From a virus: a stretch of DNA of 64,000 nt. A model generated the notes under the pieces. It saw only the letters and a list, made by a program, of their open reading frames with translations. It did not search any database and was not told where the DNA came from. Location: positions 90 to 64,089 of the IMG/VR virus record IMGVR_UViG_3300026290_000011. One strand, written 5' to 3'. A program made the translations under genes and the position numbers. Shown one piece after another: positions 7,273 through 43,833 of this stretch; position 1 is the stretch's first letter, and each line of letters opens with the position of its first letter.

Positions 7273-7327
7273 ACGGTAATCTAATAAAACAGAGCCGTAA
7301 TTCCCAAAGCGGGAGTTACGGCTTTTT
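7273..7327 (+). promoter_or_regulatory. Conserved leader hairpin plus overlapping intrinsic terminator, copy 1
   Basis: ACGG-TAA-TCT-AATAAAAC-AGA-G-CCGT, then terminator AGCCGTAATTCCC/GGGAGTTACGGCT-TTTT. Confidence 0.75.
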
Positions 7328-7354
7328 GTTTTTAAACAAAAGTTGGAGTAAAAG

Positions 7355-7654
7355 ATGGCTGATAAAACAGCGAAAGAAAGAGTAATTGAAAAGTTTAACC
7401 TTGCCGAAGATATAAGGGGAGCTAAAATTAAAACATCTATTTACCGAGTAGAACACATTGACGGCAAGTATAAAGCGGACTTTGAGATTAACGGACTACC
7501 GAGGGAAAAGACCAACAAAACTTTTGACTATCCAGACACCAGTAAAACAATCCCCAAGATATTCAACAACCCAAGCGAATTTACTACCTATACTGAAAAA
7601 TTCTTTTCAATGAGTGATGAAGATATAATTAATTTATGTAAAGAAACAAAATAA
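7355..7654 (+). CDS. Hypothetical protein
   Basis: GGAG RBS; first gene after the leader/terminator. Confidence 0.65.
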   Translation: MADKTAKERVIEKFNLAEDIRGAKIKTSIYRVEHIDGKYKADFEINGLPREKTNKTFDYPDTSKTIPKIFNNPSEFTTYTEKFFSMSDEDIINLCKETK

Positions 7655-7665
7655 TCGGAGAAAAA

Positions 7666-9054
7666 ATGGACAGCGACATTAAATTAAACAACGAGTACAA
7701 TCCAGATTCTAACGAAATTGACTTTATCGAAGAAGATAAAAGAATTGATGTAATAAAAAAACTAACCGACCCGGAAGAAATAACAGCCACACAGGAATTA
7801 TTAGAAGAAAAATATGATGCGCCCGAAGAGGAGACCGCATCAGAGGAAGCAGAACCCAAGAAACCCGAAGATACGAGTAAGGTTGAGGATACTTCTGGAG
7901 AATCAAAGGATAAAACCGAAACTAAGACCGACGAGGAACTTAAAAAACCGGAAGGTGATAAAGGGTTTATTCTTACAGATGAAGTAATACAGAAACAACC
8001 CGAAAACGTAAGGGATATTCTAAACAAGTATAAGGACAAAGGGAAAGATGATTTAGCAAAAGCAACGGCTCACGCCATTGCTGCAAAAACACCTTACCTA
8101 AAAGATGATGAAACGGCTATTAGCGCAATAACCGAGAAGATCAAAGTCTTGTCTGATGACGAGTTATTGAAAGCCCTTATAGACACACAAAAAGTAATCG
8201 GCGTGAACGAACAGCCGGACAAACCCAAAGAAGAAGTACAAAAACCCGCTAAGGTTGAATTGCCGGAAATCCCGGACACCGAAGAATTTAAGCAAGCTAT
8301 GAATTCGGAAGTCTATAAGAAGTTAAAGAAAAAGTACCCGGATATGCCTGAGTTCAATTCAGACGAATTCAAGGACTGGGAAGTAGACTTCAAGGATAGA
8401 AGCGGTTTGATTGGAGAAGGTAAGTTTGTACGTGATTTTGAATTAGCTGAGAACGAAGTTAAAGGCGAGTTACAAAAGGTTATTTATGCACAGACCGGAT
8501 TAAAAAACCTTTGGGTAGAATCACCGACTGAAATTTTACCAATACTGAACGAAGCTAATCTTCCTAAGCTAAAAGATTTGAACGATAACTTTGTAGAAGT
8601 GAATAATAAAGCACTTCAAGAAGAAGTAGAGACAATCAAGGAAGAATTAGAAAAGTACGGTGTAACAGAAAAAGATTTAGGTATTGACATGACGTTGACT
8701 AAAGATAAAAACGGTTCTTTGTATAATGAATACTTGAACTCGTTGATGTTTGCAGGCGATCAACCAGACCCAAATGTAATTAAACGAATTGGTAAAGTGC
8801 CGTTACTAAGCAAAGGACAATTAGCCGAAAAATTGATTTACAAGAATAATCTGAAAATAATGAATTTTCTTGTAGACAATAAAGCTAAAAAATCCAAAGC
8901 AGAAATTGAAAGATTAAAAGAAGACAACTTAAATACTATGGGAAGTTCTAAACCGGCGAATATAAAACCGATTGTGCAACCGGATAAAATTAGAAGTATA
9001 ACTAACAAAGACACTATAGGGAAGGTTCTTGACGATATAGAATCCAAGTATTAA
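7666..9054 (+). CDS. Putative scaffolding protein
   Basis: Acidic low-complexity N-terminus, helical body, immediately before the capsid gene. Confidence 0.65.
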   Translation: MDSDIKLNNEYNPDSNEIDFIEEDKRIDVIKKLTDPEEITATQELLEEKYDAPEEETASEEAEPKKPEDTSKVEDTSGESKDKTETKTDEELKKPEGDKGFILTDEVIQKQPENVRDILNKYKDKGKDDLAKATAHAIAAKTPYLKDDETAISAITEKIKVLSDDELLKALIDTQKVIGVNEQPDKPKEEVQKPAKVELPEIPDTEEFKQAMNSEVYKKLKKKYPDMPEFNSDEFKDWEVDFKDRSGLIGEGKFVRDFELAENEVKGELQKVIYAQTGLKNLWVESPTEILPILNEANLPKLKDLNDNFVEVNNKALQEEVETIKEELEKYGVTEKDLGIDMTLTKDKNGSLYNEYLNSLMFAGDQPDPNVIKRIGKVPLLSKGQLAEKLIYKNNLKIMNFLVDNKAKKSKAEIERLKEDNLNTMGSSKPANIKPIVQPDKIRSITNKDTIGKVLDDIESKY

Positions 9055-9082
9055 GGCAGTCTTAAAAGACTAATTAACTAAA

Positions 9083-9150
9083 AATTGTAATCTGATAAAA
9101 AGGAGCAATTATTACCCATAAGAGACGGGTGTAATTGCTTTTTCGTTTTT
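9083..9150 (+). promoter_or_regulatory. Conserved leader hairpin plus overlapping intrinsic terminator, copy 2
   Basis: AATTG-TAA-TCT-GATAAAAA-GGA-G-CAATT, then AGCAATTATTACCC/GGGTGTAATTGCT-TTTT. Confidence 0.75.
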
Positions 9151-9165
9151 AAAGGAGTAGAGAAA

Positions 9166-10455
9166 ATGGGATTAATAAATGATGATTTGAGAATGTACCG
9201 TGATGCGTTGTCGCAAGAACTTAAACTTTCTCAGTGGTATCCAGACTCAAAATGGGCTTCTATGATAGGTCATATTGGCGGGACTGATGCAAACGGTTAT
9301 CCAAAGTCTGTTAGTTATGGTAGCGTACAGGCAAAAACAATTAAAGGTACGGGTAAACCTATTGAAATGTTGACATCCTTAGACTTTCCTGGCGGATGGG
9401 CTATTGATGTTCCGGTAAAATTACCTTTGAGACAAAAACCGATTTACGGTGATAAACAAGCCAAAGATAACGAAGAGGATATGAATTGGGTTTACATGCG
9501 TGGTTTAATAAACCAAGTAAGATACCCGGTTAAAACCTCTGATGGTCTTATGGGTGATCAAGCATTAACTCCAAAGAGATTAATGCAAATATGGAAAAAT
9601 GTTAAGTCTGAGATTCAATCGGTTAACCAAAGATGGCAAGGGTATGCTCCTTACGATGCTATATATCGTGGATTCTCTGATAACTTATTCGACGACCCGA
9701 TAAACATAACACAAAAGTCGCATCCTAATTGCTATGTAGCAGGTTATGGTAGAGTACCATTCAATTCCGATAATGATACTTATGAAACAGCTATTGTAGC
9801 TCAATTGAATAATCTTGGTGCAGAAGACGGTCTGACAGTGCAAGCAATTAGAAACCTTACATATTTTGGTTCACATCACATGATTGTTCCAACGGTAGCA
9901 GGCAACAAACCAGTAAGAGGTATTTTATTTGTTAATGATGCCCAGATGGTTCAATTAGCTTCAGACCCATTGTTCGAAAAAATGGCAATAGCACTTATTA
10001 CAGCAGATGGTGAAAAATCACCATTCTTTAGCGGTTTCTACGAAGCATACTTAATTGAAGGTGTCTTGATTCTTGCCGATACAAATAATCCAGGTGTATT
10101 GATTAGCGGTGATTCCGGTTATGATTCTTCAAGAGGAATTATCAACTATGGTAATGTTAATCCTTTAGAGAATCCGATTCATGCAAGTGATATTAAAATA
10201 GCTGCTTATGTAGGTGCATCCGCAATACTTGGCGCACACACAGTACCGTTACAGTTTAAGAACAGAACAGATGACTATGATAACATTAGAGGCGAAGCCG
10301 GACGTACTGTAATCGGTTACACAAGAGCCGACAGATATGATCACGATAATTTCCTCGCAGCAAGTGAATTTCTTGGTAATACAAGTTCTCAAATACTCTT
10401 TACCAAGACACCGAATTCACCAACATGGTCTTCTGGATCAGGCAGCGAAGTTTAA
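9166..10455 (+). CDS. Major capsid protein (DUF4043/N4-gp56-like)
   Basis: 429 aa after scaffold. PIYGDKQAKDNEE...INQVRYPV matches the G..xEGNEE...IDQxR pattern of this family. Confidence 0.75.
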   Translation: MGLINDDLRMYRDALSQELKLSQWYPDSKWASMIGHIGGTDANGYPKSVSYGSVQAKTIKGTGKPIEMLTSLDFPGGWAIDVPVKLPLRQKPIYGDKQAKDNEEDMNWVYMRGLINQVRYPVKTSDGLMGDQALTPKRLMQIWKNVKSEIQSVNQRWQGYAPYDAIYRGFSDNLFDDPINITQKSHPNCYVAGYGRVPFNSDNDTYETAIVAQLNNLGAEDGLTVQAIRNLTYFGSHHMIVPTVAGNKPVRGILFVNDAQMVQLASDPLFEKMAIALITADGEKSPFFSGFYEAYLIEGVLILADTNNPGVLISGDSGYDSSRGIINYGNVNPLENPIHASDIKIAAYVGASAILGAHTVPLQFKNRTDDYDNIRGEAGRTVIGYTRADRYDHDNFLAASEFLGNTSSQILFTKTPNSPTWSSGSGSEV

Positions 10456-10519
10456 TTAATGATTAATAAACATGCCCCTTAAGTGGGGCAAAGATAAAAA
10501 ATATTAAAGGAGTATAAAG

Positions 10520-10855
10520 ATGTCAACTAAAACAGGAAAAAGAGCAAATTGGTCAGGGCTTTATGTATCTGATAGACCTCGTGATTTGTTAGGATTGACC
10601 GAAGCGCAAGAAGAAACGATAGATCAGTTTATTGGTTTCGTTGGTAAAAATCAAGACGGTGAAGTTAAAAATGCAAATCTATTAATTTTTACTGGTACAA
10701 GCGCACCAACAATAACTGATTATGCCAATACGCCGAAGGGTACGATTATTATAGCACCATTCTTAACACATTCGCTAATCTATGTGCATAAATCTCAATC
10801 TACACCCGCAGTGGTTGGTGATTGGGAAGTGTTCACAGCCGCAACGGTAACTTAA
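10520..10855 (+). CDS. Putative capsid decoration/minor head protein
   Basis: Follows MCP; AGGAG RBS; Thr/Ala-rich. Confidence 0.4.
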   Translation: MSTKTGKRANWSGLYVSDRPRDLLGLTEAQEETIDQFIGFVGKNQDGEVKNANLLIFTGTSAPTITDYANTPKGTIIIAPFLTHSLIYVHKSQSTPAVVGDWEVFTAATVT

Positions 10856-10932
10856 TTCTCAATTGATTAATTAAAACCGCCTCTTAGGTGAGGCGGTAAA
10901 CTTAAATAGTTAATTAACAATCGGAGAATTAA

Positions 10933-11382
10933 ATGCCAAAATTGGTAAGTAAAATAGATATTCAGTTGAATATACCTCCTAAGATGCGTGGTATTTTCCC
11001 AAATGAAGAAAGACTTATAATTGATTTAAGAGCAGGCGAACCAACTGAAGTTCCTAAATATGTTTTGGACTATTATACGAAAAATAGACCACATGTTTAC
11101 CGGGATGCTAAAAAGTCTGAACCGGAAACAGAACACGAAGAGAAAGCAACGCCTAAGCCAAAATTCGACCCATTAAAATTTCTTGAAACGTACTATAACC
11201 AAATAGAAGAAGGGATTCAAACGGTTAGCGATTGGAGGGACTTATTAAGTATTGCAAAAACACTTGGGCTAAAAGGTGCGCATAAACAAACCAAAGAAAG
11301 AGTTATTGAAAGAATAATCCATGATGTGGACGTAAAAAATGCTCAGCGAGAAAAACTTGATAAGCATGAGGACTCTAAATAA
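10933..11382 (+). CDS. Hypothetical head-completion region protein
   Basis: GGAG RBS; its TAA overlaps the next ATG. Confidence 0.55.
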   Translation: MPKLVSKIDIQLNIPPKMRGIFPNEERLIIDLRAGEPTEVPKYVLDYYTKNRPHVYRDAKKSEPETEHEEKATPKPKFDPLKFLETYYNQIEEGIQTVSDWRDLLSIAKTLGLKGAHKQTKERVIERIIHDVDVKNAQREKLDKHEDSK

Positions 11383-11996
11383 TGGATAACAGGAATAACT
11401 ATTTATACGGGAGAGTTAGGAATGAGTTAGACCTTAGAGATATTAGTTCAGAGCGAATACTCCCGGCGGATATTTATGATGCTTTATCTCAGGGGCAAAG
11501 ACAGATTTTTGCAAGGATAGGCGGGATAGAGAAACGATTTAAGATTAACCTTTCCGAAGGTAAATCTGAATACGGACTTGTGCCGGAATATAATCTGAGT
11601 TCAAGAATAATAGGGTTTATTACTCCCTCAACTTGGACATATAAATTAAACTATGTTGAAGAAGGTAAGTGGAGCGAAGTTGTAAAAGAAAGTATAAGTG
11701 TAAGCCAACCTATTTATGTAACGCTGTTTGAGAACAAACTAATATTTTACCCATCCCCTACGATTACAGGCGAACAAATAACAGTTCTTGCAAAAATAAA
11801 ATCACCATCAGAAAATATAAGTAATACGGAAGAGCCAATTCTTGATGAAGAATGGGACGATGCTTTAGAATATTACGCTTTATACAAGTTACTTAAAGAG
11901 GAAAGTTTTTTCGGAAAGTTTGAACATCAATTAAAAGAAATTAAGAACTCAACATCAAACAAAGGTTATCCCTTACAAAGATCGAGCGTGTGGTAA
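11382..11996 (+). CDS. Head-tail adaptor/ring protein 1
   Basis: N-terminal helix pair, LIFYPSP, and C-terminal P.LDEEWDDALEYYALY typical of podovirus adaptors. Confidence 0.65.
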   Translation: MDNRNNYLYGRVRNELDLRDISSERILPADIYDALSQGQRQIFARIGGIEKRFKINLSEGKSEYGLVPEYNLSSRIIGFITPSTWTYKLNYVEEGKWSEVVKESISVSQPIYVTLFENKLIFYPSPTITGEQITVLAKIKSPSENISNTEEPILDEEWDDALEYYALYKLLKEESFFGKFEHQLKEIKNSTSNKGYPLQRSSVW

Positions 11997-12631
11997 TGGC
12001 AACACCTAAAATAAATATTATCAGTTTGAGTTTTGCACGTCAGATAAACGACAGTAAAACAAGTGCCAATGCTGAGTTCACCGCAGGGACTGAGAACGGG
12101 AAAGTATTGAGTGCTTTGCAGAGAATGGAATTTATCAATAAGGCAATGTTTGAGTTGATAAACATTTATTGGAAAGAATCGGGGATGGATGTGAAATTAT
12201 TAGCAAGGATGTTCCCGGAATTAGTAGCTCTTAGAACAGGTACTACAAGTTCGGTAGGTGTATATACTATAGCAAATCCTAATCTTGATTTTTTCCAATT
12301 GATAGAAGTTGTAGCTGATGGTAAATATGCAGGTGTAGCTCCTAAACATTTATACCATGCTTCCGTATCTGGTGCAGAGCAATTCAGAGCAACGGCAGAT
12401 AATCCAAAAGCATTTGAATTTGGAGGCGCAATTTATCTTTTACCGGCTGCAAGTTTTAACACAAAGGGTTTGAGTTTCACAATGATAAAACAACCGTTAA
12501 ACCCTACTACAGGAGCTTGGTTAACTCAAGGCGGGGACTATGATTCGCCTTTTTACGATACGTGGAATCAAGACATAGTACAAATAGCAAAGAAAATCTT
12601 TTTTGAAGAAACAGGACAGTTGGAGGGTTAG
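11990..12631 (+). CDS. Head-tail adaptor/ring protein 2
   Basis: Same architecture (EFINKA...IYLLP...DSPFYDTWNQDIVQIA). Confidence 0.5.
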   Translation: MVMATPKINIISLSFARQINDSKTSANAEFTAGTENGKVLSALQRMEFINKAMFELINIYWKESGMDVKLLARMFPELVALRTGTTSSVGVYTIANPNLDFFQLIEVVADGKYAGVAPKHLYHASVSGAEQFRATADNPKAFEFGGAIYLLPAASFNTKGLSFTMIKQPLNPTTGAWLTQGGDYDSPFYDTWNQDIVQIAKKIFFEETGQLEG

Positions 12632-12633
12632 AA

Positions 12634-13266
12634 ATGAATAGTGTTGATTATACCTTGAATGATGCGATAAGTTTTTTGAGGATTTCCGTAGGACAAATAA
12701 GCCCGGAAAAAATAGTAGATCAACAGATAATAGACGCAATACATTTAGGTACGTGTGAAGTTGCTCAATTATTATCTGAGGTTAAATTAAACGATTATGG
12801 GACGAGTGCTACATTAACGGTTGCTAACGATGCAGCGAGTATTTCAAGTTTGGCAGTACAGAATATCATTAAGATAGTTGACTCTACAAACGGGCTTTGT
12901 ATTCCTAAGAATCAAAAGCAATTTGATGAGATAAGATTATCACCTCAAAATTTAGCTAATGTGTTCTGGGTAAGAAACGGAAATACGATAAATTTTTACA
13001 AAGGTAGTTTAGGAAGTTACGGCACAGTTACTATTTGGTATAATGCTGTACCTTCTAAAGTTACTTCAGGCTCCTCAAACCTAACCATTAAAGACACCTA
13101 TGCAGGAATAGTTTTAAGGAAAGCAAGGATTCATTTATTCCAACAGTTAAATATTGTGCCTCCGAAATCTTGGGAGCAGAGTGTGAACAATACTATTACC
13201 AGAGTGCGTAAACAATATATGGACACGTTGGAAAGTAAGAAAAGTAGTGCAACGAGGAGGAAATAA
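12634..13266 (+). CDS. Head-tail adaptor/ring protein 3
   Basis: Aligns by eye with 13266-14012 (YTLNDAISFLR/YTVSRAIGYMR; EVAQLL..DYG/EVALLI..DYG). Confidence 0.55.
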   Translation: MNSVDYTLNDAISFLRISVGQISPEKIVDQQIIDAIHLGTCEVAQLLSEVKLNDYGTSATLTVANDAASISSLAVQNIIKIVDSTNGLCIPKNQKQFDEIRLSPQNLANVFWVRNGNTINFYKGSLGSYGTVTIWYNAVPSKVTSGSSNLTIKDTYAGIVLRKARIHLFQQLNIVPPKSWEQSVNNTITRVRKQYMDTLESKKSSATRRK

Positions 13267-14012
13267 TGCCATCGATAACAAATTTAAGTTCTTACACGGT
13301 AAGCCGTGCAATAGGTTATATGAGAGGGATGCTCGATGAAGTAGCTCCGGGTAAATTAGACCAACTTCCTCTTGCAATGTACTTAAACCTTGCTCAAATG
13401 GAAGTAGCTCTATTAATCAACAGTAACAGATTACCGGATTATGGAGAAACCCTAACAATTAAAAATAGTGCTTCGGGTGCAGGTGAGGTTGAATTATCTG
13501 TTAGCGGTACAGATCCGACTTACGGATATGCAAATATAACCGTAGACGCTTCGACGGCTAAAATAAGAATAGACAATGTTGAAAGAGTTACCTACATCCC
13601 GGCAGAAGGCAGTCCGATAGCATGTAAAGAAGTTAGCCCGGTAGACTTTGAAGGATTAACAGGAAATACGTTAAAGGCAGGCGGAGTTTACTATTATTAT
13701 TTCGGTGGAGTTGTTTATGTGAAGAATTTAGTCTCAGGTATTACTCAAGAATCTCATTGGGGTTCGTTAAAAGTTTACTACAACAGATACCCGGCTAAAT
13801 TAAGTGCGGATAATGCGGATAGACTTGGCGATACTTTAGATGTAAGAGACGGCTATGTAAGAGCAGTTTTAGATAAAGCGATACTATTCGCTTTAGAAGA
13901 ACTCCAGGTGCAAATGCCTGAAGAAGCAAGTGAGAGCGTTAATTCACTTATTGAACAAATATCACAAGCGCAGACAGCAGAGACAAGTTTTATAAACACA
14001 GTAATGAGTTAA
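13266..14012 (+). CDS. Head-tail adaptor/ring protein 4
   Basis: Paralogue of the preceding gene. Confidence 0.55.
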   Translation: MPSITNLSSYTVSRAIGYMRGMLDEVAPGKLDQLPLAMYLNLAQMEVALLINSNRLPDYGETLTIKNSASGAGEVELSVSGTDPTYGYANITVDASTAKIRIDNVERVTYIPAEGSPIACKEVSPVDFEGLTGNTLKAGGVYYYYFGGVVYVKNLVSGITQESHWGSLKVYYNRYPAKLSADNADRLGDTLDVRDGYVRAVLDKAILFALEELQVQMPEEASESVNSLIEQISQAQTAETSFINTVMS

Positions 14013-14013
14013 A

Positions 14014-16488: not shown

Positions 16489-17105
16489 TGAGTTTTTCGA
16501 GGGCGCATAAATTTTCCGAATATGATGAATTGGATATTAAAAAACTTGAAGCTGAGTTTGAGGGAATAGCAAGATTCTTAAACGTAAGCGTGATACCAAA
16601 TTTAGAAAAAGTAGTTAAGCAAGAGAAAATTCAAACGGGTACAACAGGCGAACCAAGTAACCCGGACTCTGAAGGACAACACGGTGGGATTGACAAATTA
16701 GTCAGGTATAGAAGTGCAATGCTAAGTAGTGTTGCTCAAGTAGCTCAAGAAAACTTATACCCGATTATAGGAATGAAAAAAACTTTAACGAAAGACGATA
16801 TAGGTGCAAATGTTTTAGTAGGGTCTGTACCTCAAGGATATACGATTAAAAGATTTTACTGGGATATAAAGGAAGGTTTTGAGGACAATAAAATAAAAAT
16901 AAATGATGGTGAAAAAGATATAGTAGCAAACGGAGAAGACGGAAGTTTTCAAATGGTTGATTTATCGATAGAAAATCTTGGGGATGCACCGATGAATTAC
17001 GAGTATTTAAGTCCGGCAGTTCTTACGGCAACCATAGAAGGAGCAGAGAGCGAAACGGGAGAGGTTGAATTGATTTTTGATTTACAAAAGATTCAGAAGT
17101 TATAA
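16485..17105 (+). CDS. Tail-associated protein
   Basis: Coupled to the nozzle gene; structural block. Confidence 0.45.
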   Translation: MMSFSRAHKFSEYDELDIKKLEAEFEGIARFLNVSVIPNLEKVVKQEKIQTGTTGEPSNPDSEGQHGGIDKLVRYRSAMLSSVAQVAQENLYPIIGMKKTLTKDDIGANVLVGSVPQGYTIKRFYWDIKEGFEDNKIKINDGEKDIVANGEDGSFQMVDLSIENLGDAPMNYEYLSPAVLTATIEGAESETGEVELIFDLQKIQKL

Positions 17106-17116
17106 GGAGATGTGAA

Positions 17117-17476
17117 ATGTTATTAACACCATATATGGATGACGATGGAAACCTTGTTGTAACACAGGGAGAGACTTTTGTCTATGCTTTGAATAATATA
17201 AAAGAAGACAATAATCTGATAGATTTTACTCAAGGTTGGTCTGTGGAAATGCAGGCAAGGACTGATGGGGAGACTTTGTTACTTGATTTGAGTTCTACAG
17301 GCGGGGAAATCATACTTGGAAACGGAACAATAACCATATCGGAATCAGCAAGTGCTATGAGTTCTTTGCCTGTAGGCACTCATAGGTACGACATAAAACT
17401 AACAGACCCAGACGGGAATGTTACACATTGGTTTAGGCGGAAAAGGTTTAAGGTGTTGAGGAGAGTTACGCAGTGA
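17117..17476 (+). CDS. BppU-N-like tail adaptor domain protein
   Basis: TQGETF...DFTQGWSVEMQAR...GTITI...YDIKLTDPDG pattern. Confidence 0.55.
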   Translation: MLLTPYMDDDGNLVVTQGETFVYALNNIKEDNNLIDFTQGWSVEMQARTDGETLLLDLSSTGGEIILGNGTITISESASAMSSLPVGTHRYDIKLTDPDGNVTHWFRRKRFKVLRRVTQ

Positions 17477-17961
17477 TTACGTTCACCGTAGAAAATAGGA
17501 TATTGAGTGTTACGCCTGAGAATATTGCCGGGGAGGTAAATGTATTTACAACCGATTCGCCTGAAATAAGCTTGCAAACAATAACAAAGGAAATAACATT
17601 TGATGTTATGGCAGGCGGGACAATAATAAATAATATTGTTGGCGGTGCAACATTAGAACTTCCTTTCACTTTTGAAGATTGGTCTTTGGGGTCTAAGAAG
17701 ATAGGTAAGGCATTGGGAGGTCTAAGGGTTGAGAAGACATCGACTGAAGTAACAGAATTATTCAACGGTGGAACGATAGTAATAGGTGATGCAGACGCAC
17801 ACGGTAGACTTGCAGCAGCAGCAGATATAAAATTAAACCAAGTGAAAAGGTTTCACACAGAACCAGATCATAAGTACGAAACAGACACAGACATATACGT
17901 TTATTTCGAGACCGGGACTCCGACACAGGGCGAGGGTACGGTTATAATTTATTTGCGGTAA
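17473..17961 (+). CDS. Tail-associated protein
   Basis: GTGA overlap; C-terminal beta-sandwich similar to the end of 16485-17105. Confidence 0.45.
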   Translation: MITFTVENRILSVTPENIAGEVNVFTTDSPEISLQTITKEITFDVMAGGTIINNIVGGATLELPFTFEDWSLGSKKIGKALGGLRVEKTSTEVTELFNGGTIVIGDADAHGRLAAAADIKLNQVKRFHTEPDHKYETDTDIYVYFETGTPTQGEGTVIIYLR

Positions 17962-17974
17962 TAGGAGATAGGAT

Positions 17975-18793: not shown

Positions 18794-18804
18794 AGGATAG
18801 ATAA

Positions 18805-19629: not shown

Positions 19630-19631
19630 CC

Positions 19632-30577: not shown

Positions 30578-30587
30578 GGGATAAGAA

Positions 30588-36500: not shown

Positions 36501-39500
36501 AAGGCGTTAGTTAAACAAGCTATTGAGAATGGTAAAATAAAATCGCATCCAGACTATCCCGAATTATCAAGTCAACCAAACCGCACACCAGATAAGGGTG
36601 TGCAAACACTTAATCAAGATATACTTGAAAGAAACGACTTACAAAAACTACAGGACAGAAAACGACATCTTGAATTAGTTATTGAGGAAGCCGGAAAGAA
36701 AAATAACACTAAGGCAGTAACAGACGCTAAGAACGAATTAAAAGAAGTAAACCGTAAACTTTCAAACCGTAGGTCAAAAGAATCTCAGTTTGATATTTTT
36801 GGCGATGCGCAAAACCAAGAAACTCTTTTCCAAACAAACCACAATAAAACACGTACAGCGTTTAACAAGTTAAGCCCGAAAGAACAGACCAAGTTTCTTA
36901 ACCAACTTGAAAAGATGTTAGCCGATAATTGGGGAGTGGAGTTTAAGAACTTAAGCAAAGAGCAAGCGGCGGGAATTACTCAGTTACTTAAAAGAATGAT
37001 TCAGTTAGACCCGGACACAGCTAACCTTACTACTGTTTGGGAGGAAGCGTTCCACGCAAGTATGATAGCCCTTGCTAAACCTTTTGCAGCAAGAAATATG
37101 TTACGGGAAGCCGGATGGAACGGCAAGGGTGAAATTTGGGATGTAGTTAATAATCAATCTTTAAGAGACGCACACGAAAAACTTGCAAAGGATTTTATCA
37201 AGTGGGCAGAAAGCAGTAAAGAACCAAGTACACGCACAGAGAAAGTATTTGCTTTACTTAAAGATTTGTGGAACAAGATAGCAGCGTTTCTTTATCAATC
37301 TGGTTTTCACACACACGCCGGATATTTTGAAATGCTTTACAGTGGAAAGTTAAAAGCGAGTGCGGAGGGAATTAATGTAGAAGACTTAGCCCAAAGTTTA
37401 GCGCAAGAAATTAACAGAGAAGAAAACTTTAAGCGTTGGTTTGGAAAATCAAAAGTAGTTGATAAAAAGAAAAATCCTTTGATAGTCTATCATTCCAGCA
37501 CAGAAAATTTTGATGAGTTCCAAATAGGTGATGTTGGTTTTCATTTTGGCACAAAAGAACAAGCCGAGAAACGAGCATCCCCTATTTACAAAAGGGGAAG
37601 AAAACCCCTTACAAGAATTGACGAAAATAACAAGGTGCTTATAACCTCAGAGAGAGCGGGTTTTTATCCCGCTTATTTAAGCATCCAGAACCCGATAGAT
37701 ATTATTGATAATGGATTTGAAGACCCGAATGCGTATGTAGAATCTTTGGCTGAATCAAATGAAATGATGTACGATAAAAAGTTATTCACCAGAAAAGAGT
37801 TAGACGATTTATCCGCAAAACTTGATAATGTTGGAAACAAAAAAGGATTTTCTATTATCCAAAAATTCTTAAAAGACAAAGGATTTGATGGGATAGTTTA
37901 TTTCAACAACTTTGAAGGTGATGGACGTAGTTATGCTGCGTTTAACCCCACCCAAATAAAATCCATCTTCAACAGAGGCACATTTGACCCGAACGATGCG
38001 AATATATTAGGACAATCATTCAGCCCTATTTGGTTTAGTAAGTTAGAAAGAGTAATTGAACAGAAAGCGCCGAATAAGAATATTAACCCTACTTCTTTAA
38101 TAGCGATGTTAAAGAATAACGGAGTAAAGGACGAAGAAATTAAGTGGTTAGATGTGAAAGGATTTCTTGAAGCTAACCCAAAAGCGACTAAGAAAGAATT
38201 AATAGATTATGTAAAGAGTAATCAGGTTGAGATTAAGGAAGTAACGAAAGGAGTTTCTAAAAACATTGAAGACCAATTCAAAGAAAATAATCTAAAAATC
38301 GAAATCAATAATGACGAAACCGAATATCAAAGAGATGGAGAGAACTATTACGATTTAATCGACACAAAAAATGGACATACACTATTTACTGGCGACAGAG
38401 AACAGGTTAGAGAATATGTGCAGAATGATCCGAGATTCAAACTTGGTGAACCAACAAAATTTGAGGATTACAAAACTGCCGGAGGTTCAAATTACAGAGA
38501 AGTGTTGTTTACGCTGCCGGATAATGATACTTATATGCAAAGACATAATGATTGGATAAATTATGCAAGGAGTATGGAATCAAAATATGGTGGTGGATAT
38601 TATTCTCAAATGACACCTGAAGAAAAAATTAGGTATAAAGAATTAGAAGATAATGTAGGAACTCCGAAGAAGGTATTTTCATCCTCTCATTGGGACGAAC
38701 CAAACGTAGTTGCTCATGTAAGACTACAAGACTTTACCGATACAAAAGGAAGGAAAGTTTTATTAGTAGAGGAAGTTCAGAGCGATTGGCACCAAGCAGG
38801 GAAGAAGAAGGGGTATCAAGGCGACACATTAGGGGAAAACTATACGCAAGGCGTTGACGCAAAGGGTAGGGAAAACTATAAATTTCCTAATGCCAAATGG
38901 AGTATTTCTAAAACGCCATCGGGGTCTTATGTTGTCCTCGATGATGAGGGTTTAGCTGTTCATAGAGCAGATACCTTTGACAAAGCCAAAAACGAGATAC
39001 AAAAATGGGAGTTTGATACAAAGTCAACGCCTTCTGCGCCATTCAAATCAACATGGCACGAACTAACCCTTAAAAGAGTATTAAGACTTGCCTCAGAGGA
39101 AGGATATGACGGAATAGCACTAACTACAGGCGAACAGCAAGCGGATAGGTATGACTTGAGTAAACAAGTTGATGAAATAAGATATGACAAACTAAAAAAC
39201 GGTGATTATCAAGTAAACATTTTCAAAGATGGTAAGTCTATTGATTCTAAGAAGGGTGATTTAAAATCACTTGAAGATTATGTTGGGAAAGATATTGTAA
39301 AGAAGATTGCTGATAATAGTAACCCGACATTGAATAGAAATGATAATGTTGAATATAGTGGTTCGTTAAAAGGTGTTGATCTCAAAGTAGGCGGCGAGGG
39401 GATGAAGGGATTTTACGATAAAATGTTACCTTCATTCCTAAACAGTTACGCTAAGAAGTGGGGAGCGAGAGTTGATGAAATAACAATAAATGCCGAGGGA

Positions 39501-42239
39501 TTAGATTTTGATTCATGGTTAGAACAAAAATATCCCAACGAAATAGGGCAACAAATTTCAGCCCAAGACAGAACCCAACTTGTTAAGGAATGGGAAAAGC
39601 AAGTTGGAGATAAGAGCCAAAAAGTTCAATATCTTCCAATAACCGACGCAATGCGTAGTTCAGTATTATTTGAAGGACAGGCGTTATTCCAAAAGCTCCC
39701 GCAAGAACAAGTCAACGTAGAACAGAGAGGAAAGGAAATATACGATTCTGGTAAGACCCGTTACGCAGAATGGGTTAAGGAGATGAGGAAGGAGTTTGGG
39801 GAAAACCAAGATTATAGAAGTATTTATTTATTATCAAAAGTGAAAGATAGCTCTAAATTTAAGACCGATATAACAGCAGATATTTATGAAATGAACCGCA
39901 AAAACAGACAGGGCAAACTTTCCGAAAGTATCGGTAGGGAAAGTAAATCCGCCGTAGAATTTATGAGGAATAAACTTGTCCCGATTAGCACAAGACTTGG
40001 GAACATAGCTCCATCGTTAAAAAGTAGGTTAAGAGAATTTGAATTTGATTATGGCAAAGAAGTAACCGTACAACTAAAAAGGGTACAGCCATTTTTACAA
40101 AAGAGTTCGAAACTTGAAAAAGAAATACAGGCAGATTTAGACCTCGCATTAAAGAACGGCGATGTTAAAAAGATAAACGAAATAATAAAGAATAATGACT
40201 TAGAATCCGAATATAAAGAAGTAAGAACCTTGTTAGATGGATTGTATAAAAAAGCTATTGATGTAGGAATAGACTTAGGATATAGAGAAAATTACCATCC
40301 AAGAAGCGTTAAAGACCTTGAAGCGTTTATAGACTACTTTGAGAAATCCGGTGAATGGAATAGGTTCCAAGAATTGATAGACCAAAAGACAATCCAGAAG
40401 GGAGATATATTAACCCTTGAGGAAAAAGTAAACCTTATCAATAATGCGTTACGTGGTTATAATGACGGCATATCGCTTTCTAAAACCGCTAATATGAAAG
40501 AAAGAAAAGTTCCTATTATAGATTCGGAAATAAACAAATTCTATTATGATTCTAACACGTCTCTTGTAAGATACATCAGTGCAGTAAATGAAATTATAGA
40601 AGCGAGAAAATTCTTTGGTAAGAAGAAACAAGCTAAGGTAAGTAGCGAATTAACCGACATCAGGGATAAAACTAAGAGTTTAAGAAAAGCCAAAATTAAT
40701 GCTTTACAGAATCCAAACGGGGTAACGTTATCTATATATTACCAAGCTAAGAATGAGTTAGAAGATGCAAGGAAACAGTCAAAGGATTACCAAGAAAGAC
40801 TTAAACAAAGACGTGAAAAAACCCTTTATGAAAAGAGAATACTTGAAGGGCATACGGAACTAACTAAAAAGAAATTGATTCCGTTAGAAGAATTCAGCAT
40901 CGATAATTCAATAGGTAATTATGTATTGGATTTAATTAAAGAAAACCAACTAAATGCACAGCAAGCGCAAGAAGTTGAAAGTTTACTTAAAGCAAGGTTC
41001 AACCAACACGGAACTTCAGGACTTGTTTCTTCTATGAAAAACATAAGTTATGTAATAGCACTTGGTTCGCCAACGTCCGCAATTACTCAAATTGGCGATT
41101 TAGCCATACCTCTTTATAGGACAGGTCCCTTAAGAACGTTACAGGCGTTAGGGGAATCGGTATTTAATAGAGGAGCAATAAAACTTGAAGATTTAGGAAT
41201 TAACCCGGAGAAGATAGCCCAAGAATTTTCAGACCCAAGAAGAAGATCGAGAATGGTTCAGAAAGTGTTCACTCTTACGGGATTTAATAAAATTGACATA
41301 CTTGGTAAAGAAACGTTAGTGAATGCAACCTTAAAGAAATACCAGAGAAAAGCTAATAATCCTAATAAAGAGTTTCTTAGAAGATTAGAAAAGGTATTTG
41401 AAGGTGAAACAGACCAGGTAATAAAAGACTTACAAAACAAAGAGATTACCGAAAATGTAAAATTGTTATTATTCAATGAGTTATTAGACACTCAACCGAT
41501 AGCACTTTCAGAGATGCCCGAAGGATATTTAACGGCAGGCGATGGAAGAATATTTTATATGTTAAAAACTTTCTTTATTAGAAGAATAGATTACTACAGA
41601 AACGAAACCTTTAAGCTAATGAAGGATAAAGAAACAAGACCGGAAGGGATTAAAAATCTTATTTATTTGACTATATCTATTATGCTAATGGAAGCCGGGG
41701 CAGATGAATTAGAAGATTTATTACTCGGTAGAGAAACATCTCTAAAAGATAGGGTGATAGATAACCTTGCCCGTTTGGTGGGATTTTCAAAATATAGTGT
41801 AGATCAAGTTACAACCAAAGGACTTTTTTCCACAGTAGCCGGAATGATAGTACCTCCGTTTGATTTATTTGATGATATGCAAAAAGACATATTCAATTAT
41901 ATCAATGGTAAAGACGTACCTATTAGAAGCGTAAAAAACATTCCTGTATTAGGCAAGATAGCTTATAATTGGTGGATGGGTGCTTATATGGATAATAAAT
42001 CTTTACTTAGAAAACACGGATTAGATAAATCAGAACAAATTAAAGCCATTAAAGAAAAACAAAAAGAAGTAGACAAATTACGTGAAGACGTTCTTAAGGG
42101 TAAAATAGATAATAGAGTTTACCAGGATGCAAAGGACGACTTAGAATATATGAAACGTGATTCAGAAGATTATGACAGGTATAAATACTTACAGAACGAA
42201 AGGAAAAGAGAGAACGAAAGAATCCTTGAGGGTAGGTAA
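30588..42239 (+). CDS. Giant polyvalent ejection protein (3883 aa)
   Basis: Hydrophobic Gly/Ala segment near aa 380-420; ParB-like fold (IPPVMVY...TLNHSRL); two ART-like segments (VYHST..., FKRWFGKSKVVD...IVYHSS); zincin-like WEEAFH; LVEEVQSDW domain; helical C-terminus. Confidence 0.8.
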   Translation: MLPIKRRPINRNIFGDENEVSTLESPNKTPLNRKPINRDFLSDAPIIEQQETEQSKQPSLATQELNRYFGDPLTGDGQIRQNELGLSNKDKDRVYDIAKKRIKPEDVLGLLEPSQPKGNILSTIIPDAKAEPKFDSFLGDISPIKDTKAQPSTLTPAESTQGFQKESLNRQLLKDIYGLSDEEINKGSSKKAESILLGIEQQGKINQKEYDEIVKSLDTNTKNLEKLHIKINTLKDNIKTPQDLETFNQSIEEYNQLLNQINPSFKRLIELDKSGGELADRSKLAQDYLSRSQREESNVGDLPKEFWKTLKYMPQQAIGGSLEMLNEILAQMNLNKGILYDPEQTAIKKAGTWLREQGKLKERELKPKTGFWGELGSGAATMAIAAPLTAGVSVATGNPVAGFVAGFIPSFVLEGGLAYNEAKEYGLSDKEASLYSLPVGLISGAIEQLSELKILKKLGLTKKIAQEVTEKLAQKKLLPKIGEAMITGAKWEGIEELSQEITQLISESLYKRSEDLPGLNEILERISTSALYGSILGGFMGGGTALLTHPQSKKIAKDLGIRLKAAEERTLQDDTDRIEQINKLFDRKQPIQERTSQPQMGERIIPDAEQQTADLPSLEELQGIKNEPVRTDIAELPKERSTAKDSQEVGEEKTTDFEKVTQRIKEAGITEQQDIEDIIAEAELVQQDEPGKTIDAIIDESLSYYKGLQQPKVDNNANAIKNLAERGRKPEEISKALNVPIEEVAKLVQEKPKTEIAEQKPLEPQPIENVEQSPTKLSNIDYATVEKSLKDIPDLQKKPTGWKLFETKKGEKSFALVDPNTKEYKTFNSYPEAQSYAIDNPITLKEIPSGEIITQKLVQPEPIIDKSIQTDTKVTEQPSNSKEPYDDFINELTNELERSGKQRRKAILEGKQSKATVNIERLANKYNLPKKMVDNLAGIGELSSVDSDPKIIKDVINKSFKQELKKYTDLAEKYKPLEPEMVTDVTPEVANVTKTEKVIKDAQSQLDKLLARRKEIYNLMEQTRDNLQFQKLAKEDSDLIGKINQIEKKYKIGGRGKFGEKTIKDIVNLAVREYQEQPAFISFQFLNPQARGMGIKKLEKAGYNVKKLDDNYIKIEKRIGEEVTKETDVISDKEKIEEKESRVKFYEVAPDEVNVNTEAMQNREAKFSKETYNSIIEDVKSGDFDIANIPPVMVYKDETGKLWTLNHSRLKAYQDLKAEGNEDFQTIPVQEIKAKNLEEAGKLAKEKSNIGAKETPIERAKIYRKDREGGLPENRIIQKAEQLEGRNKNHVINLSYLNPDGKTITSYSNVGENVSGGRVMRDVADYIGEVRKENKELTDLHEDELFEWLYTNGAMDNFKNKIKFKENIESFVKHASFNPNELLGVGKNKVVRGSHTIEVDKKLEGARKRRKDLEKERTDFEAGKTSLPFGLTPKEYLSEISQKIANIDKDILDLTEDRRTAVQSDRLQDDLFSQITEEVENEQAEEIIATRPTEELEELAENTESIEKSKKRISTEEIQQAVDKVEVVIKPKKSAPLIKPPKGTNAVIVTFNNGKVSKLPAKDLDVIGNDYSTVKELSFGNVEFNKSGGLKWDTFKEVKKIVPSEQTLRQSIENEGDSEYLSSVKKDKGAGVNLPENKPQTPEGKKVLPKTVNDLPSLGTDSIGRNIPNWKGSRVYHSTNEQGLKDISQKGYRFLEGDLEDEQMGYYGKAISFTPDLEYTRQFGKYITVAKLSDDIKILNLNNETDWNKYLQLTKNISSDKYGDAIREAGYDGLYDAGAGDLFIVNPKKIKYEGIDKDYEDSQSQLFYEMSREDYGKIKGEKPKFYARFSAHLPDDLKRNWSSWNFGAEGFKGTQEELENYLNSATDELPAFVSGFDIYPGTKNQFDIRELYPNYWVVVDKGFLGGLAGHELEAEDIQSALEEVKKNRHGGTGEGDFFNAEQFIPVYSEEPYGKFGLHILRTEDAEITKEHKALVKQAIENGKIKSHPDYPELSSQPNRTPDKGVQTLNQDILERNDLQKLQDRKRHLELVIEEAGKKNNTKAVTDAKNELKEVNRKLSNRRSKESQFDIFGDAQNQETLFQTNHNKTRTAFNKLSPKEQTKFLNQLEKMLADNWGVEFKNLSKEQAAGITQLLKRMIQLDPDTANLTTVWEEAFHASMIALAKPFAARNMLREAGWNGKGEIWDVVNNQSLRDAHEKLAKDFIKWAESSKEPSTRTEKVFALLKDLWNKIAAFLYQSGFHTHAGYFEMLYSGKLKASAEGINVEDLAQSLAQEINREENFKRWFGKSKVVDKKKNPLIVYHSSTENFDEFQIGDVGFHFGTKEQAEKRASPIYKRGRKPLTRIDENNKVLITSERAGFYPAYLSIQNPIDIIDNGFEDPNAYVESLAESNEMMYDKKLFTRKELDDLSAKLDNVGNKKGFSIIQKFLKDKGFDGIVYFNNFEGDGRSYAAFNPTQIKSIFNRGTFDPNDANILGQSFSPIWFSKLERVIEQKAPNKNINPTSLIAMLKNNGVKDEEIKWLDVKGFLEANPKATKKELIDYVKSNQVEIKEVTKGVSKNIEDQFKENNLKIEINNDETEYQRDGENYYDLIDTKNGHTLFTGDREQVREYVQNDPRFKLGEPTKFEDYKTAGGSNYREVLFTLPDNDTYMQRHNDWINYARSMESKYGGGYYSQMTPEEKIRYKELEDNVGTPKKVFSSSHWDEPNVVAHVRLQDFTDTKGRKVLLVEEVQSDWHQAGKKKGYQGDTLGENYTQGVDAKGRENYKFPNAKWSISKTPSGSYVVLDDEGLAVHRADTFDKAKNEIQKWEFDTKSTPSAPFKSTWHELTLKRVLRLASEEGYDGIALTTGEQQADRYDLSKQVDEIRYDKLKNGDYQVNIFKDGKSIDSKKGDLKSLEDYVGKDIVKKIADNSNPTLNRNDNVEYSGSLKGVDLKVGGEGMKGFYDKMLPSFLNSYAKKWGARVDEITINAEGLDFDSWLEQKYPNEIGQQISAQDRTQLVKEWEKQVGDKSQKVQYLPITDAMRSSVLFEGQALFQKLPQEQVNVEQRGKEIYDSGKTRYAEWVKEMRKEFGENQDYRSIYLLSKVKDSSKFKTDITADIYEMNRKNRQGKLSESIGRESKSAVEFMRNKLVPISTRLGNIAPSLKSRLREFEFDYGKEVTVQLKRVQPFLQKSSKLEKEIQADLDLALKNGDVKKINEIIKNNDLESEYKEVRTLLDGLYKKAIDVGIDLGYRENYHPRSVKDLEAFIDYFEKSGEWNRFQELIDQKTIQKGDILTLEEKVNLINNALRGYNDGISLSKTANMKERKVPIIDSEINKFYYDSNTSLVRYISAVNEIIEARKFFGKKKQAKVSSELTDIRDKTKSLRKAKINALQNPNGVTLSIYYQAKNELEDARKQSKDYQERLKQRREKTLYEKRILEGHTELTKKKLIPLEEFSIDNSIGNYVLDLIKENQLNAQQAQEVESLLKARFNQHGTSGLVSSMKNISYVIALGSPTSAITQIGDLAIPLYRTGPLRTLQALGESVFNRGAIKLEDLGINPEKIAQEFSDPRRRSRMVQKVFTLTGFNKIDILGKETLVNATLKKYQRKANNPNKEFLRRLEKVFEGETDQVIKDLQNKEITENVKLLLFNELLDTQPIALSEMPEGYLTAGDGRIFYMLKTFFIRRIDYYRNETFKLMKDKETRPEGIKNLIYLTISIMLMEAGADELEDLLLGRETSLKDRVIDNLARLVGFSKYSVDQVTTKGLFSTVAGMIVPPFDLFDDMQKDIFNYINGKDVPIRSVKNIPVLGKIAYNWWMGAYMDNKSLLRKHGLDKSEQIKAIKEKQKEVDKLREDVLKGKIDNRVYQDAKDDLEYMKRDSEDYDRYKYLQNERKRENERILEGR

Positions 42240-42552: not shown

Positions 42553-42567
42553 GGTAGTGTCTCAGTT

Positions 42568-43398
42568 TCATTTTTTATCTAATAATTGCACTAAATCTTC
42601 AATCGACCATAGTTTTTTTGTTAATCCCGCATCCATTGCAGGCGTAACCCTTAAAGATTTATGGATTCTTACAAAGTTATAATACATGAAATGAAGTGCT
42701 ATTGCATGAGCGTGGTTTTCTATCTTCTTAGAAAATCCATTTGTTAGGCGTGTAAATCTTCTCATACTCATTCGCATTGTTAAATTTTGACGTTCAACAA
42801 AACTTGTTGAAATATGTTTTGTCTTAGGTATGCCTGTAACAACATTTACTTTTGTTCCTGTGCATTCTGCCGGACTGTATCTGTGTCCCCTGTCTAAAGA
42901 TTCTCCATATAGTTTTACAAGTTGAGCATAATCTATGTCTGCTCCAAATGTTGTTTCAACAGCTTCTAAGTATGCTTTCAATCCGTCTGTGGTTAATTGT
43001 ACCCGATCACTTAATCTTGATGCTACGTCTTCCATAAATATTTTTGCATATTCTGCATCACGATTTCCAACAAGCCAAGATACTGCAAGTTTAGAATCAG
43101 AGTCTAAAGCAACCCAAGTCCAAACACTTCCAAGCCCAAACTTGCCCTGCATATCTTCGGGAAGATTTTTTTCTTTGGCATAAACGAAAGACCAAATTTC
43201 ATCACATTGAATTCTTTTTGCTTTAACATTTTTTACATTTTCATCGTGGTATTTTTGACAAGCCGTTCCAATATCAACTAATAATTTTGTTACTGTGTTT
43301 ATCGAAACATCTGCAAGTCTTGAAGTTGCTCTTAAACTATTTCCTTCAACAAGTAATCCAACAATCTGAATTCTTTTTTCTGTTGATAGCTTATTCAT
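42568..43398 (-). CDS. IS1-family DDE transposase (single ORF)
   Basis: N-terminal HTH (GNSLRATSRLADVSINTV), CDEIWSFV, LTTDGLKAY, VERQNLTMRM..RRFTR; stop codon lies inside the TIR. Confidence 0.92.
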   Translation of the reverse strand: MNKLSTEKRIQIVGLLVEGNSLRATSRLADVSINTVTKLLVDIGTACQKYHDENVKNVKAKRIQCDEIWSFVYAKEKNLPEDMQGKFGLGSVWTWVALDSDSKLAVSWLVGNRDAEYAKIFMEDVASRLSDRVQLTTDGLKAYLEAVETTFGADIDYAQLVKLYGESLDRGHRYSPAECTGTKVNVVTGIPKTKHISTSFVERQNLTMRMSMRRFTRLTNGFSKKIENHAHAIALHFMYYNFVRIHKSLRVTPAMDAGLTKKLWSIEDLVQLLDKK

Positions 43399-43424
43399 AA
43401 CAACCTCATTTATTTTCTAACGGC

Positions 43425-43458
43425 AATATAATAAACTATACTTAATCAGTCAAGTATA
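43425..43458 (-). promoter_or_regulatory. Transposase promoter with overlapping palindrome
   Basis: TTGACT-17 nt-TATATT on the minus strand; TATACTT-N8-AAGTATA spans the -35. Confidence 0.65.
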
Positions 43459-43509
43459 AAGTTCAGTTTGCAATTATTTGTATTTATCATTACGTTTGCA
43501 TCAAAATAG

Positions 43510-43577
43510 TGGAGCTGGAGGGAATCGAACCCTCATTTGTCGGGTGGGAATCCAGACTTTTTACCATAAACAGCCCC
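43510..43577 (-). tRNA. Degenerate tRNA-like RNA: Ala-type acceptor (G3.U70, A73), shortened D-arm, UCC anticodon
   Basis: GGGGCTG/CAGCTCC stem; T-arm GAGGG-TTCGATT-CCCTC; anticodon stem has one mismatch, loop ATTCCCA; no encoded CCA. Confidence 0.55.
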
Positions 43578-43581
43578 ATAG

Positions 43582-43673
43582 CGGTGAGTGTTGGATTTGA
43601 ACCAACGGAACTGAGTGCGAGTCAGTTCGCCGGATTTACAGTCCGGTCGTTTAAACCACTCACGCAACTCACC
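43582..43673 (-). tRNA. Type II tRNA with GUA (Tyr) anticodon and Ser-like body
   Basis: GGTGAGT/ACTCACC acceptor, CCGGA-CTGTAAA-TCCGG, 7-bp variable stem, GTTGG-TTCAAAT-CCAAC, discriminator G. Confidence 0.85.
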
Positions 43674-43682
43674 GATTTTGAT

Positions 43683-43706
43683 AGCCACTCTTTTGAGTGG
43701 CTTTTT
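43683..43706 (+). terminator. Intrinsic terminator on the + strand (antisense to the tRNAs)
   Basis: AGCCACTC-TTTT-GAGTGGCT followed by TTTT. Confidence 0.6.
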
Positions 43707-43763
43707 ATTAATACCTTTCATAAACATATAGTCGATTGATCCTCAAAAAAAACAAATTTAAAA

Positions 43764-43833
43764 CAAAAAAAGCCGGTACTATTCTCGCTTTCATACGAGT
43801 TTAATACCGGCTCCTTTTCATCGGATTACCGAT
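43764..43833 (-). promoter_or_regulatory. Conserved leader hairpin plus overlapping intrinsic terminator, copy 4 (upstream of the tRNAs)
   Basis: Minus strand ATCGG-TAA-TCC-GATGAAAA-GGA-G-CCGGT, then AGCCGGTA...TACCGGCT-TTTTTT. Confidence 0.75.

Follow-up and report, generated by a model that had tools for sequence, protein, structure and literature searches.

A terminator-overlapping bulged hairpin ahead of phage late operons, a candidate antitermination module

The IMG/VR record IMGVR_UViG_3300026290_000011 (64,270 bp) is judged to be a complete phage genome. We analyse its positions 90 to 64,089, a stretch of 64,000 nucleotides (hereafter the window) which is nearly all of the record. We describe in it a small RNA module, a 28-nt bulged hairpin that stands directly ahead of an intrinsic terminator and shares bases with it. 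The module occurs four times in the window: ahead of the genes preceding the major capsid gene, ahead of the capsid gene itself, ahead of a long operon and inside an insertion sequence (IS). The window has a G+C content of 35.6%. Nearly all of its genes, including those of the terminase, the portal, a 462-aa protein, the major capsid protein and the tail, lie on the + strand. A clear Shine-Dalgarno sequence precedes 41 of the 65 genes, thus the host uses Shine-Dalgarno sequences.

Four copies of a bulged hairpin ahead of terminators

In the window each copy reads, from 5' to 3', as a 4-5-nt arm, U-A-A, three pyrimidines, an 8-nt A-rich loop, three pairing purines, a G and a pairing 3' arm. The loop is GAUAAAAA in two copies and GAUGAAAA or AAUAAAAC in the others. 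The hairpin is thus built of the outer helix P1, the U-N-A bulge, the 3-bp pyrimidine/purine helix P2, the loop, the G and the returning strand P1'. The G and the 3' arm double as the first bases of a long G+C-rich terminator stem, of which P1' makes up the first 4-5 nt in all four copies. The stem is followed by a tract of 5-7 U, then by (G)UUUUUAAA and by the ribosome-binding site of the next gene. A first-pass annotation of the window had described this geometry with UAA between P1 and P2, and had taken P1' for the 5' arm of a terminator. The latter is borne out in 4/4 copies by a canonical stem and U-tract. The geometry is likewise seen in all four, with one correction: RNAfold pairs U10 with G27 as a wobble, so that the internal loop is better called a 2-nt bulge.

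Copy 1 hairpin lies on the + strand at 7272-7299 (P1 7272-7276/7295-7299, bulge 7277-7279, P2 7280-7282/7291-7293, loop 7283-7290 with the sequence AAUAAAAC, G 7294). Its terminator at 7294-7333 (+) begins with the bases of P1' and consists of a stem (7294-7322) and a U5-G-U5 tract (7323-7333). The copy is preceded by a non-coding leader at 7131-7271 (+), which contains a hairpin H0 at 7249-7264; a late promoter is presumably located somewhere within about 6773-7303. Copy 1 is upstream of the genes of a 99-aa and the 462-aa protein, which together with the major capsid gene occupy 7355-10455 (+). Copy 2 hairpin (9083-9110, +; P1 AAUUG/CAAUU, P2 UCU/GGA, loop GAUAAAAA) starts 29 nt past the stop codon of the 462-aa gene. 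Its terminator with the U-tract (9105-9150, +) ends 15 nt before the start of the major capsid gene at 9166. Copy 3 hairpin (28482-28509, +; P1 AUCGG/CCGAU, P2 UUC/GAA) and its terminator with the U-tract (28504-28548, +) are upstream of the operon 28569-42239, whose last gene encodes a 3883-aa polyvalent protein. Copy 4 hairpin is on the other strand (43806-43833, −; P1 AUCGG/CCGGU, P2 UCC/GGA, loop GAUGAAAA), and its terminator with the U-tract (43761-43811, −) is upstream of tRNA genes (43510-43673) and a transposase gene (42568-43398). The order of the downstream genes is as annotated at first pass, where the 462-aa gene was named "scaffold"; this name rests on the position before the capsid gene only, and a PHROG search with this gene gives no match.

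The four copies are well separated from the rest of the genome. A degenerate 20-nt pattern of the core matches exactly four sites in the window, while 0.23 are expected by chance and four or more are found in 0/100 shuffles. A covariance model scores these sites at 72-86 bits and the rest of the window at 20 bits or less. Both agree with the starts and strands given at first pass (7273, 9083 and 28482 on +, 43833 on −). The terminator stems have energies of −12 to −22 kcal/mol with U5-7 tracts directly after them in 4/4 copies, as is typical of intrinsic terminators. In terminator scans no other canonical intrinsic terminator of the 64-kb phage is as strong as these four, and copy 1 is the top match to a simple terminator consensus in the first 20 kb. 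A small, non-conserved extra hairpin is located 4-12 nt 5' of the arm in copies 1, 2 and 4 (7249-7264, 9058-9071 and 43838-43860 on −), and likewise before the copies in three phages discussed below (G003, G004 and G007).

Copy 4 is carried by an IS1-family element of 1.9 kb at 42553-44458 (−), in which perfect 18-bp terminal inverted repeats (42553-42570 and 44441-44458) enclose a DDE transposase gene. In the order of the − strand the element contains genes of a KGG-type protein and a helix-turn-helix (HTH) protein, the module, a tRNA-Tyr-like gene, a second weak tRNA and the 276-aa transposase. By PHROG the latter ORF weakly matches a transposase (E 1e-4); other phages encode 31 relatives of it, many between similar inverted repeats. 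The second tRNA-like gene (43510-43577, −) is reported by Rfam alone, with 31 bits a little over the threshold, while ARAGORN does not report it. The phage G003 holds the same IS (transposase 85% identical) with the KGG gene, a homologous module, tRNAs and the transposase and with no HTH gene; G003 also has a non-IS copy of the module 5' of its head operon. The tRNAs of its IS copy are instead a tRNA-Gly and a tRNA-like gene with the anticodon AUA. A plain terminator without the hairpin motif (GCCACTC-TTTT-GAGTGGC and a T-run) lies in the window at 43680-43701 (+), between the tRNA genes and copy 4, and would stop + strand transcription entering the IS.

Some features of the surrounding genome are as follows. 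BLASTN of the capsid region and the IS against 50,697 GenBank phages gives no match, and single-protein locus scans with the 383-aa and 462-aa proteins find no relatives. The 3883-aa polyvalent protein (30588-42239, +) contains an ART-PolyVal ADP-ribosyltransferase domain at residues 2292-2462. An ORF of about 70 aa at 53430-53642 (+) is 96% identical to an ORF of the phage G007, while the capsid identity of the two phages is only about 29%, which suggests a recently exchanged cassette.

Two competing folds in a family of phage RNA modules

For the search of other phages we used a covariance model (R1) of the four copies, in which the terminator stem is the sole structure given. The 5' arm of P1 is left unpaired in it, hence P1 is testable independently. 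Relatives of the capsid protein were taken from metagenomes and IMG/VR and searched with R1. Two copies, equivalent to copies 1 and 2, are found in L131 and two in L132/L134; in L130 the module lies directly 5' of the capsid gene, and further copies are present in G008, G007, G003 and L135/L136. Such a search of phages with a model of the four copies had been proposed with the first-pass annotation, and it does retrieve homologous modules in related phages. Among 30 other IS1-family transposase loci of phages R1 finds no module; only the closest IS copy has one.

A looser core pattern gives 10 matches in IMG/VR. A hairpin starting at GCC follows immediately in 10/10 of them, and a U-tract is present at 9/10, the remaining one (L171) being a long hairpin without it. 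Several of these matches are in GC-rich phages that share essentially no genes with the phage of the window. One phage has three copies (G414) and another two (G415). L170 has the module 5' of its scaffold-like and capsid genes, and L178 5' of the small terminase gene; in L173 it separates the capsid gene from a small head gene, and in L172 terminase from portal. In several cases (G414, G008 and the IS of G003) a good sigma-70-type promoter is located 10-30 nt 5' of the copy, thus the module there is a 5' leader, as in a leader attenuator. Other copies begin 26-39 nt past a stop codon. Covariance model and pattern scans together give at least 10 further phage contigs with the module, of which some are GC-rich and have no other relation to the phage of the window. 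The initial description of a four-copy element thus holds for the window and understates the family.

In the bacterial genomes searched the module was not detected. A strict 27-nt pattern (the core and ATT), which is too narrow to represent the whole family, has one chance match in IMG/VR and 83 matches in 185,579 species genomes, with P1, P2 and a terminator together in none of the best 40 when ranked by P1/P2 pairing. The looser core pattern is not found in 401 Bacillota genomes nor in 5 further genomes searched. Within what was searched, the distribution of the module is restricted to phages, and so far comprises phages and one IS family.

The copies align without gaps, and both helices covary. 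In a 36-column alignment of 10 copies 96.3% of the P1/P2 cells are paired, compared with 74% after shuffling (reached in 0/500 shuffles); both sides have changed in 6 of the 8 pairs, and sliding the partner by 1-3 columns lowers pairing to 30-51%. With 19 distinct copies from at least 10 phages the pairing is 88.8% versus 68.4% in shuffled alignments, none of 500 shuffles reaching the observed value, and the slid controls are paired at 29-55%. P2 is paired in 100% of these copies, in the forms UCC/GGA, UUC/GAA, CUC/GAG, UCU/AGA, CUU/AAG and CCC/GGG. P1 is paired at 82%, with 100%, 100% and 74% for the inner pairs and 68% for each of the outer two. Compensatory changes are seen at 7 of the 8 pairs. 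The changes in both helices noticed at first pass in four copies are thus real and extend to other phages. No variation is seen at G9, U10, A12, G27 and C28, and little at A17, U18, A20 and A22; the loop is GAUAA(A/C)AA in most copies.

In every copy the 3' strand of P1 is bound also to pair with the 3' arm of the terminator. Since P1 and P2 covary and P1 shares this strand with the terminator, the element is a genuine two-state RNA with both folds under selection. Helices which exclude each other, share a strand and are both kept in evolution are the mark of an attenuator. This agrees with the view of the first-pass annotation that the element is a structured RNA with mutually exclusive folds.

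Folding calculations give −4.6 to −10.3 kcal/mol for the hairpin alone and −17.8 to −35.3 kcal/mol for the terminator form, the hairpin being 8.5-16 kcal/mol weaker than the terminator. When P1 and P2 are enforced in the folding, the leftover upper stem stops 5-6 nt short of the U-tract.

Four other explanations of the conserved segment were tried and rejected. Alternative pairings (an AAU/AUU helix and an ATCGG-TAAT-CCGAT hairpin) each fit two copies only. A leader peptide (SD-like GGAG, then ATT) fails as ATT is not conserved beyond this phage. Target-site duplication as the source of the 5' arm would not account for its complementarity to an internal segment. Translation-coupled control is disfavoured by the variable distance from the stop codon to the hairpin, 17 to 156 nt.

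The relatives also show how the module is gained, lost and changed. G001, the closest fragmentary relative (capsid 77% identical), lacks the hairpin as well as the terminator at its equivalents of the copy-1 and copy-2 sites, thus the two parts are gained and lost together. The complete genome G004 (capsid 52% identical) has no model match; at its site equivalent to copy 1 (about 59,800-59,885, L164) an upstream hairpin like that of copy 1 is followed by AAUCG-UAAGA-CGGUU, leading into a −20 kcal/mol terminator. G008 has a second hairpin without a terminator (5073-5115, L169; P1 GGG/CCC), 63 nt 5' of its terminator-linked copy. It probably arose by local duplication, given the identical 22-nt core. 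In a 259-kb IMG/VR phage contig (L185) the core is found at 1563-1582 (−) with a perfect 6-bp P1 (UUACUG/CAGUAA) and without a terminator. An ORF begins here 7 nt after the GGAG of the core, which is its Shine-Dalgarno sequence; this match may be fortuitous, or may represent a form of the switch that acts on translation.

RNA across copies 1 and 2

Of the 15 public runs that contain the stretch, six are metatranscriptomes of bioreactors and come from different studies. For four RNA runs the contigs were compared with positions 1-20000 of the window, and gaps in contig cover in a single run were not counted as evidence. In these four metatranscriptomes the mean contig depth is 1.5-21 from position 1 to about 6800, and 41-73 from about 6773-7303 to 14.6-16 kb, and in run X2 beyond 20 kb. 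Across the leader region of copy 1 the depth rises 3- to 25-fold, being higher downstream. The uneven depth speaks for RNA rather than contaminating DNA.

In X2 a low-depth contig ends at 7332, the end of the copy 1 U-tract, and high depth sets in with a contig from 7303 on. The high-depth contigs of X3 and X4 start at 6773 and 7216 and continue through copy 1, while that of X5 starts at 7746 with a loose end. Copy 1 is bridged by contigs of 2 runs and copy 2 by contigs of 4/4 runs, so that read-through RNA across both copies probably exists. We read these data as a strong late transcript that starts in or just 5' of the 7131-7271 leader and passes the copy-1 and copy-2 terminators in the sampled cells; some upstream transcripts may stop at copy 1. 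A sigma-70 consensus was not found in the 7131-7271 region. The placement of the copies in front of late operons, as first annotated, is in agreement with the gene order.

RNA abundance within the first 20 kb is highest, in the four metatranscriptomes, over the block 7216-16051, which comprises the 99-aa and 462-aa genes, the capsid gene and the genes that follow. The high-depth contigs end at 14587, 15084 and 16051, where neither a module nor an obvious terminator is present. An A9 run 5' of copy 1 (7214-7225) has a one-base length difference in X3, and the high-depth contig of X4 starts at 7216 within it.

Proposed mechanism and alternative readings

We compared the module with known RNA families and antitermination systems. 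At gathering thresholds Rfam 15 gives only the two tRNA matches in the whole window, and relaxed scans of copies 1 and 4 give sub-threshold, terminator-like noise only (best 26.9 bits versus a gathering threshold of 47). The first-pass annotation, which could assign no family, is thus supported by the Rfam comparison that it proposed. The RAT elements bound by BglG, SacY and LicT are short imperfect hairpins with conserved unpaired bases, which overlap the 5' strand of a terminator and prevent termination when held. The module is like them in the logic of overlap and in place (promoter-proximal leaders and between cistrons). It differs in its 28-nt size, 2-nt bulge, 3-bp P2 and 8-nt A-rich loop, and in occurring in phages and not in sugar operons. 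On direct reading both the core sequence and the geometry are different, as was remarked at first pass, and the proteins scanned, which do not include every ORF, contain no CAT or PRD domain.

The boxB of lambda and P22 has a 5-bp stem with a GNRA-like pentaloop and acts processively at a distance without terminator overlap. The module is alike as a phage RNA hairpin with a purine/A-rich loop ahead of terminators and in its link to delayed gene expression. However, it shares bases with each terminator, from which a local action would follow, its loop is of 8 nt and its P2 of 3 bp, and no N-like protein was identified. The substrates of ANTAR proteins (EutV, AmiR, NasR) consist of two hexaloop hairpins, the second of which overlaps a terminator and is stabilised by the RNA-binding protein. 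The module resembles them as a small terminator-overlapping hairpin, and a tandem pair is present in G008; in 18 of 19 copies there is a single hairpin with an 8-nt loop, the pair is limited to G008, and no ANTAR domain was detected in the proteins scanned. The put RNAs of HK022 are larger and have two stems; they modify RNA polymerase processively and are not known to pair with a terminator. The module, unlike put, pairs with the terminator strand. We take resemblances to the boxA of rrn and lambda, the T4 gene 43 operator loop, the MS2/PP7 operator hairpins and the K-turn and UAA/GAN motifs only as leads.

ANTAR-type antitermination is treated in PMC7496416. The put RNA and the system described for Tn916 (PMC11658703) are cases of antitermination on phages and mobile elements without a dedicated phage protein, which would fit the lack of a shared protein among the carriers of the module. 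A catalogue from 2023 is described as containing about 10,000 anonymous structured-RNA candidates from IMG/VR, including 1241 IMG/VR candidates with terminators and some candidates 5' of capsid genes (PMC10690425). The 'ON' platforms of riboswitches are like the module in that the 3' strand of the element doubles as the 5' strand of the terminator; the module differs from riboswitch platforms in being very small. We found no description of such a motif in the literature, the candidates of the catalogue being known to us by description and their sequences not compared. The module belongs to a well-known mechanistic type (antiterminator versus terminator) and is, as an RNA class, new.

With slightly better than even confidence, we propose that the module is an antiterminator/terminator attenuator whose hairpin is held by an effector, thus coupling the expression of late operons to that effector. 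By default, the strong intrinsic terminator would stop the host RNA polymerase just before the late operon or the IS tRNA and transposase genes. The hairpin would be transcribed first, with its P1 of 2-6 bp topped by the invariant U·G, the 2-nt N-A bulge, the 3-bp P2 and the 8-nt loop, and would take up the G-C-C at the base of the terminator stem. With the hairpin held in place, the upper stem would end 5-6 nt short of the U-tract and the polymerase would read through. We infer an effector from two facts taken together: the hairpin is weaker than the terminator by 8.5-16 kcal/mol, and unrelated phages have kept the bases of its bulge and loop. The effector would most likely be an RNA-binding protein of the phage or of the host.

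The candidates for this role named at first pass gain no support. G001 and G004 also encode the FmdB-like protein; the former is without a module at the equivalent sites, and the latter has the reduced P1 form only. The HTH and KGG proteins are IS-borne and have no Pfam match, and the IS copy of G003 is without the HTH gene. The early-region ORFs have recombination and replication functions or nothing by Pfam and PHROGs. These findings are in keeping with a host factor that is conserved, with a metabolite, or with small phage proteins that evolve fast.

Several observations weigh against an effector-held attenuator. Protein clustering finds no protein family common to the AT-rich and GC-rich carriers even at a relaxed E-value, and no known antiterminator domain is present among about 30 window proteins scanned. 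P1 is reduced to 2-3 G-C pairs in distant members. In the terminator form the purine run and the A-rich loop also pair with the U-tract, and their conservation is in part due to this pairing. G004 retains P1 and has lost P2 and the conserved loop, while G005 and L130 retain P1 and P2 with unrelated loops; hence the loop is not indispensable, which leaves room for a reading without a factor. The RNA data consist of contigs, which carry no strand, no true ends and no time course, and their depth is a per-contig mean.

The main rival, unlikely in our estimate, is a factor-free tuned terminator, in which the hairpin of the 5' arm and P2 competes kinetically, giving a fixed intermediate level of termination with nothing sensed. 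It would provide upstream messages with stable 3' hairpins together with constitutive read-through. The P1 form of G004 with its UAAGA loop, the replaced loops of G005 and L130, the lack of a shared phage protein and the RNA contigs that cross copy 1 (2 runs) and copy 2 (4 runs) are all in line with it. However, a structural competitor would not need the invariant and near-invariant bulge and loop bases that are kept across phages differing in GC content and genes, and so much weaker a hairpin should be easily displaced. The terminator-less tandem copy of G008 and the copy over the ribosome-binding site in L185 also suggest that the hairpin is a recognised unit.

An improbable rival is a small-molecule riboswitch, with the bulge and loop as the ligand pocket and a ligand that stabilises P1 and turns transcription on. 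Invariant unpaired bases, covarying helices and the absence of a shared carrier protein fit a universal ligand; the invariant U10/A20 and A12/U18 are complementary and could form tertiary pairs, and L185 may represent a second expression platform over a Shine-Dalgarno sequence. However, the element is very small for this (28 nt with a 3-bp P2), its loop has given way to others in L130 and G005 and is missing from G004, no association with metabolic genes is seen, and the module was not found in the bacterial genomes searched.

We give no more credence to the idea that the core is a DNA-level signal, a late promoter or a palindromic protein site (GTnATC n GATnAC) before the terminator, with the RNA pairing incidental. 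The lambdoid pR'-qut-tR' arrangement, a DNA-level signal placed before a terminator, is the model for it. The RNA depth steps up and not down at copy 1, one high-depth contig starts at 7303, and 4 of 6 consensus positions are palindromic. However, the palindrome does not covary (71.9% versus 71.5% in shuffled alignments), whereas the covariation of P1 and P2 is not explained by DNA recognition. No −35/−10 match is present inside the core, copies 2 and 3 are inside operons about 29 nt past stop codons, and contigs of two runs start well 5' of the core (6773, 7216) and run through it.

Least probable of all, the copies would be ordinary strong terminators of the bidirectional type, or hairpins for RNase processing or stability, with flanks alike by recent duplication or by A-tract/U-tract constraints: the A-rich loop and purine run do pair with the U-tract, lengthening the stems to duplexes of 19-22 bp, and all copies are at operon boundaries, but the stems have neither sequence nor length in common, unlike the conserved 5' flank, which is also found in unrelated phages; there is covariation between the 5' arm and the base of the terminator, and terminators without the motif are also present in these genomes.

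Going beyond the effector-held attenuator, we put forward as a tentative and rather doubtful extension that the hairpin is the sensor of an unrecognised modular switch in unrelated phages, which reads one widely conserved host factor or metabolite, and not a phage protein, for late timing, is joined to terminators in most copies and perhaps to a ribosome-binding site in a jumbo phage, and has been captured by an IS1-family element to control its own tRNAs and transposase.

Except for a few model phages, little is known of how late genes are turned on. The module is a compact RNA device with covariation support, located directly before capsid, scaffold-position, packaging and ejection operons in carriers that share almost no genes. 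Its capture by an IS hints that mobile elements borrow phage timing signals. Finding the effector would establish an antitermination system, or else a riboswitch-like class, that is new, and the module would also provide a marker of late-operon boundaries for the genomes of uncultured phages.

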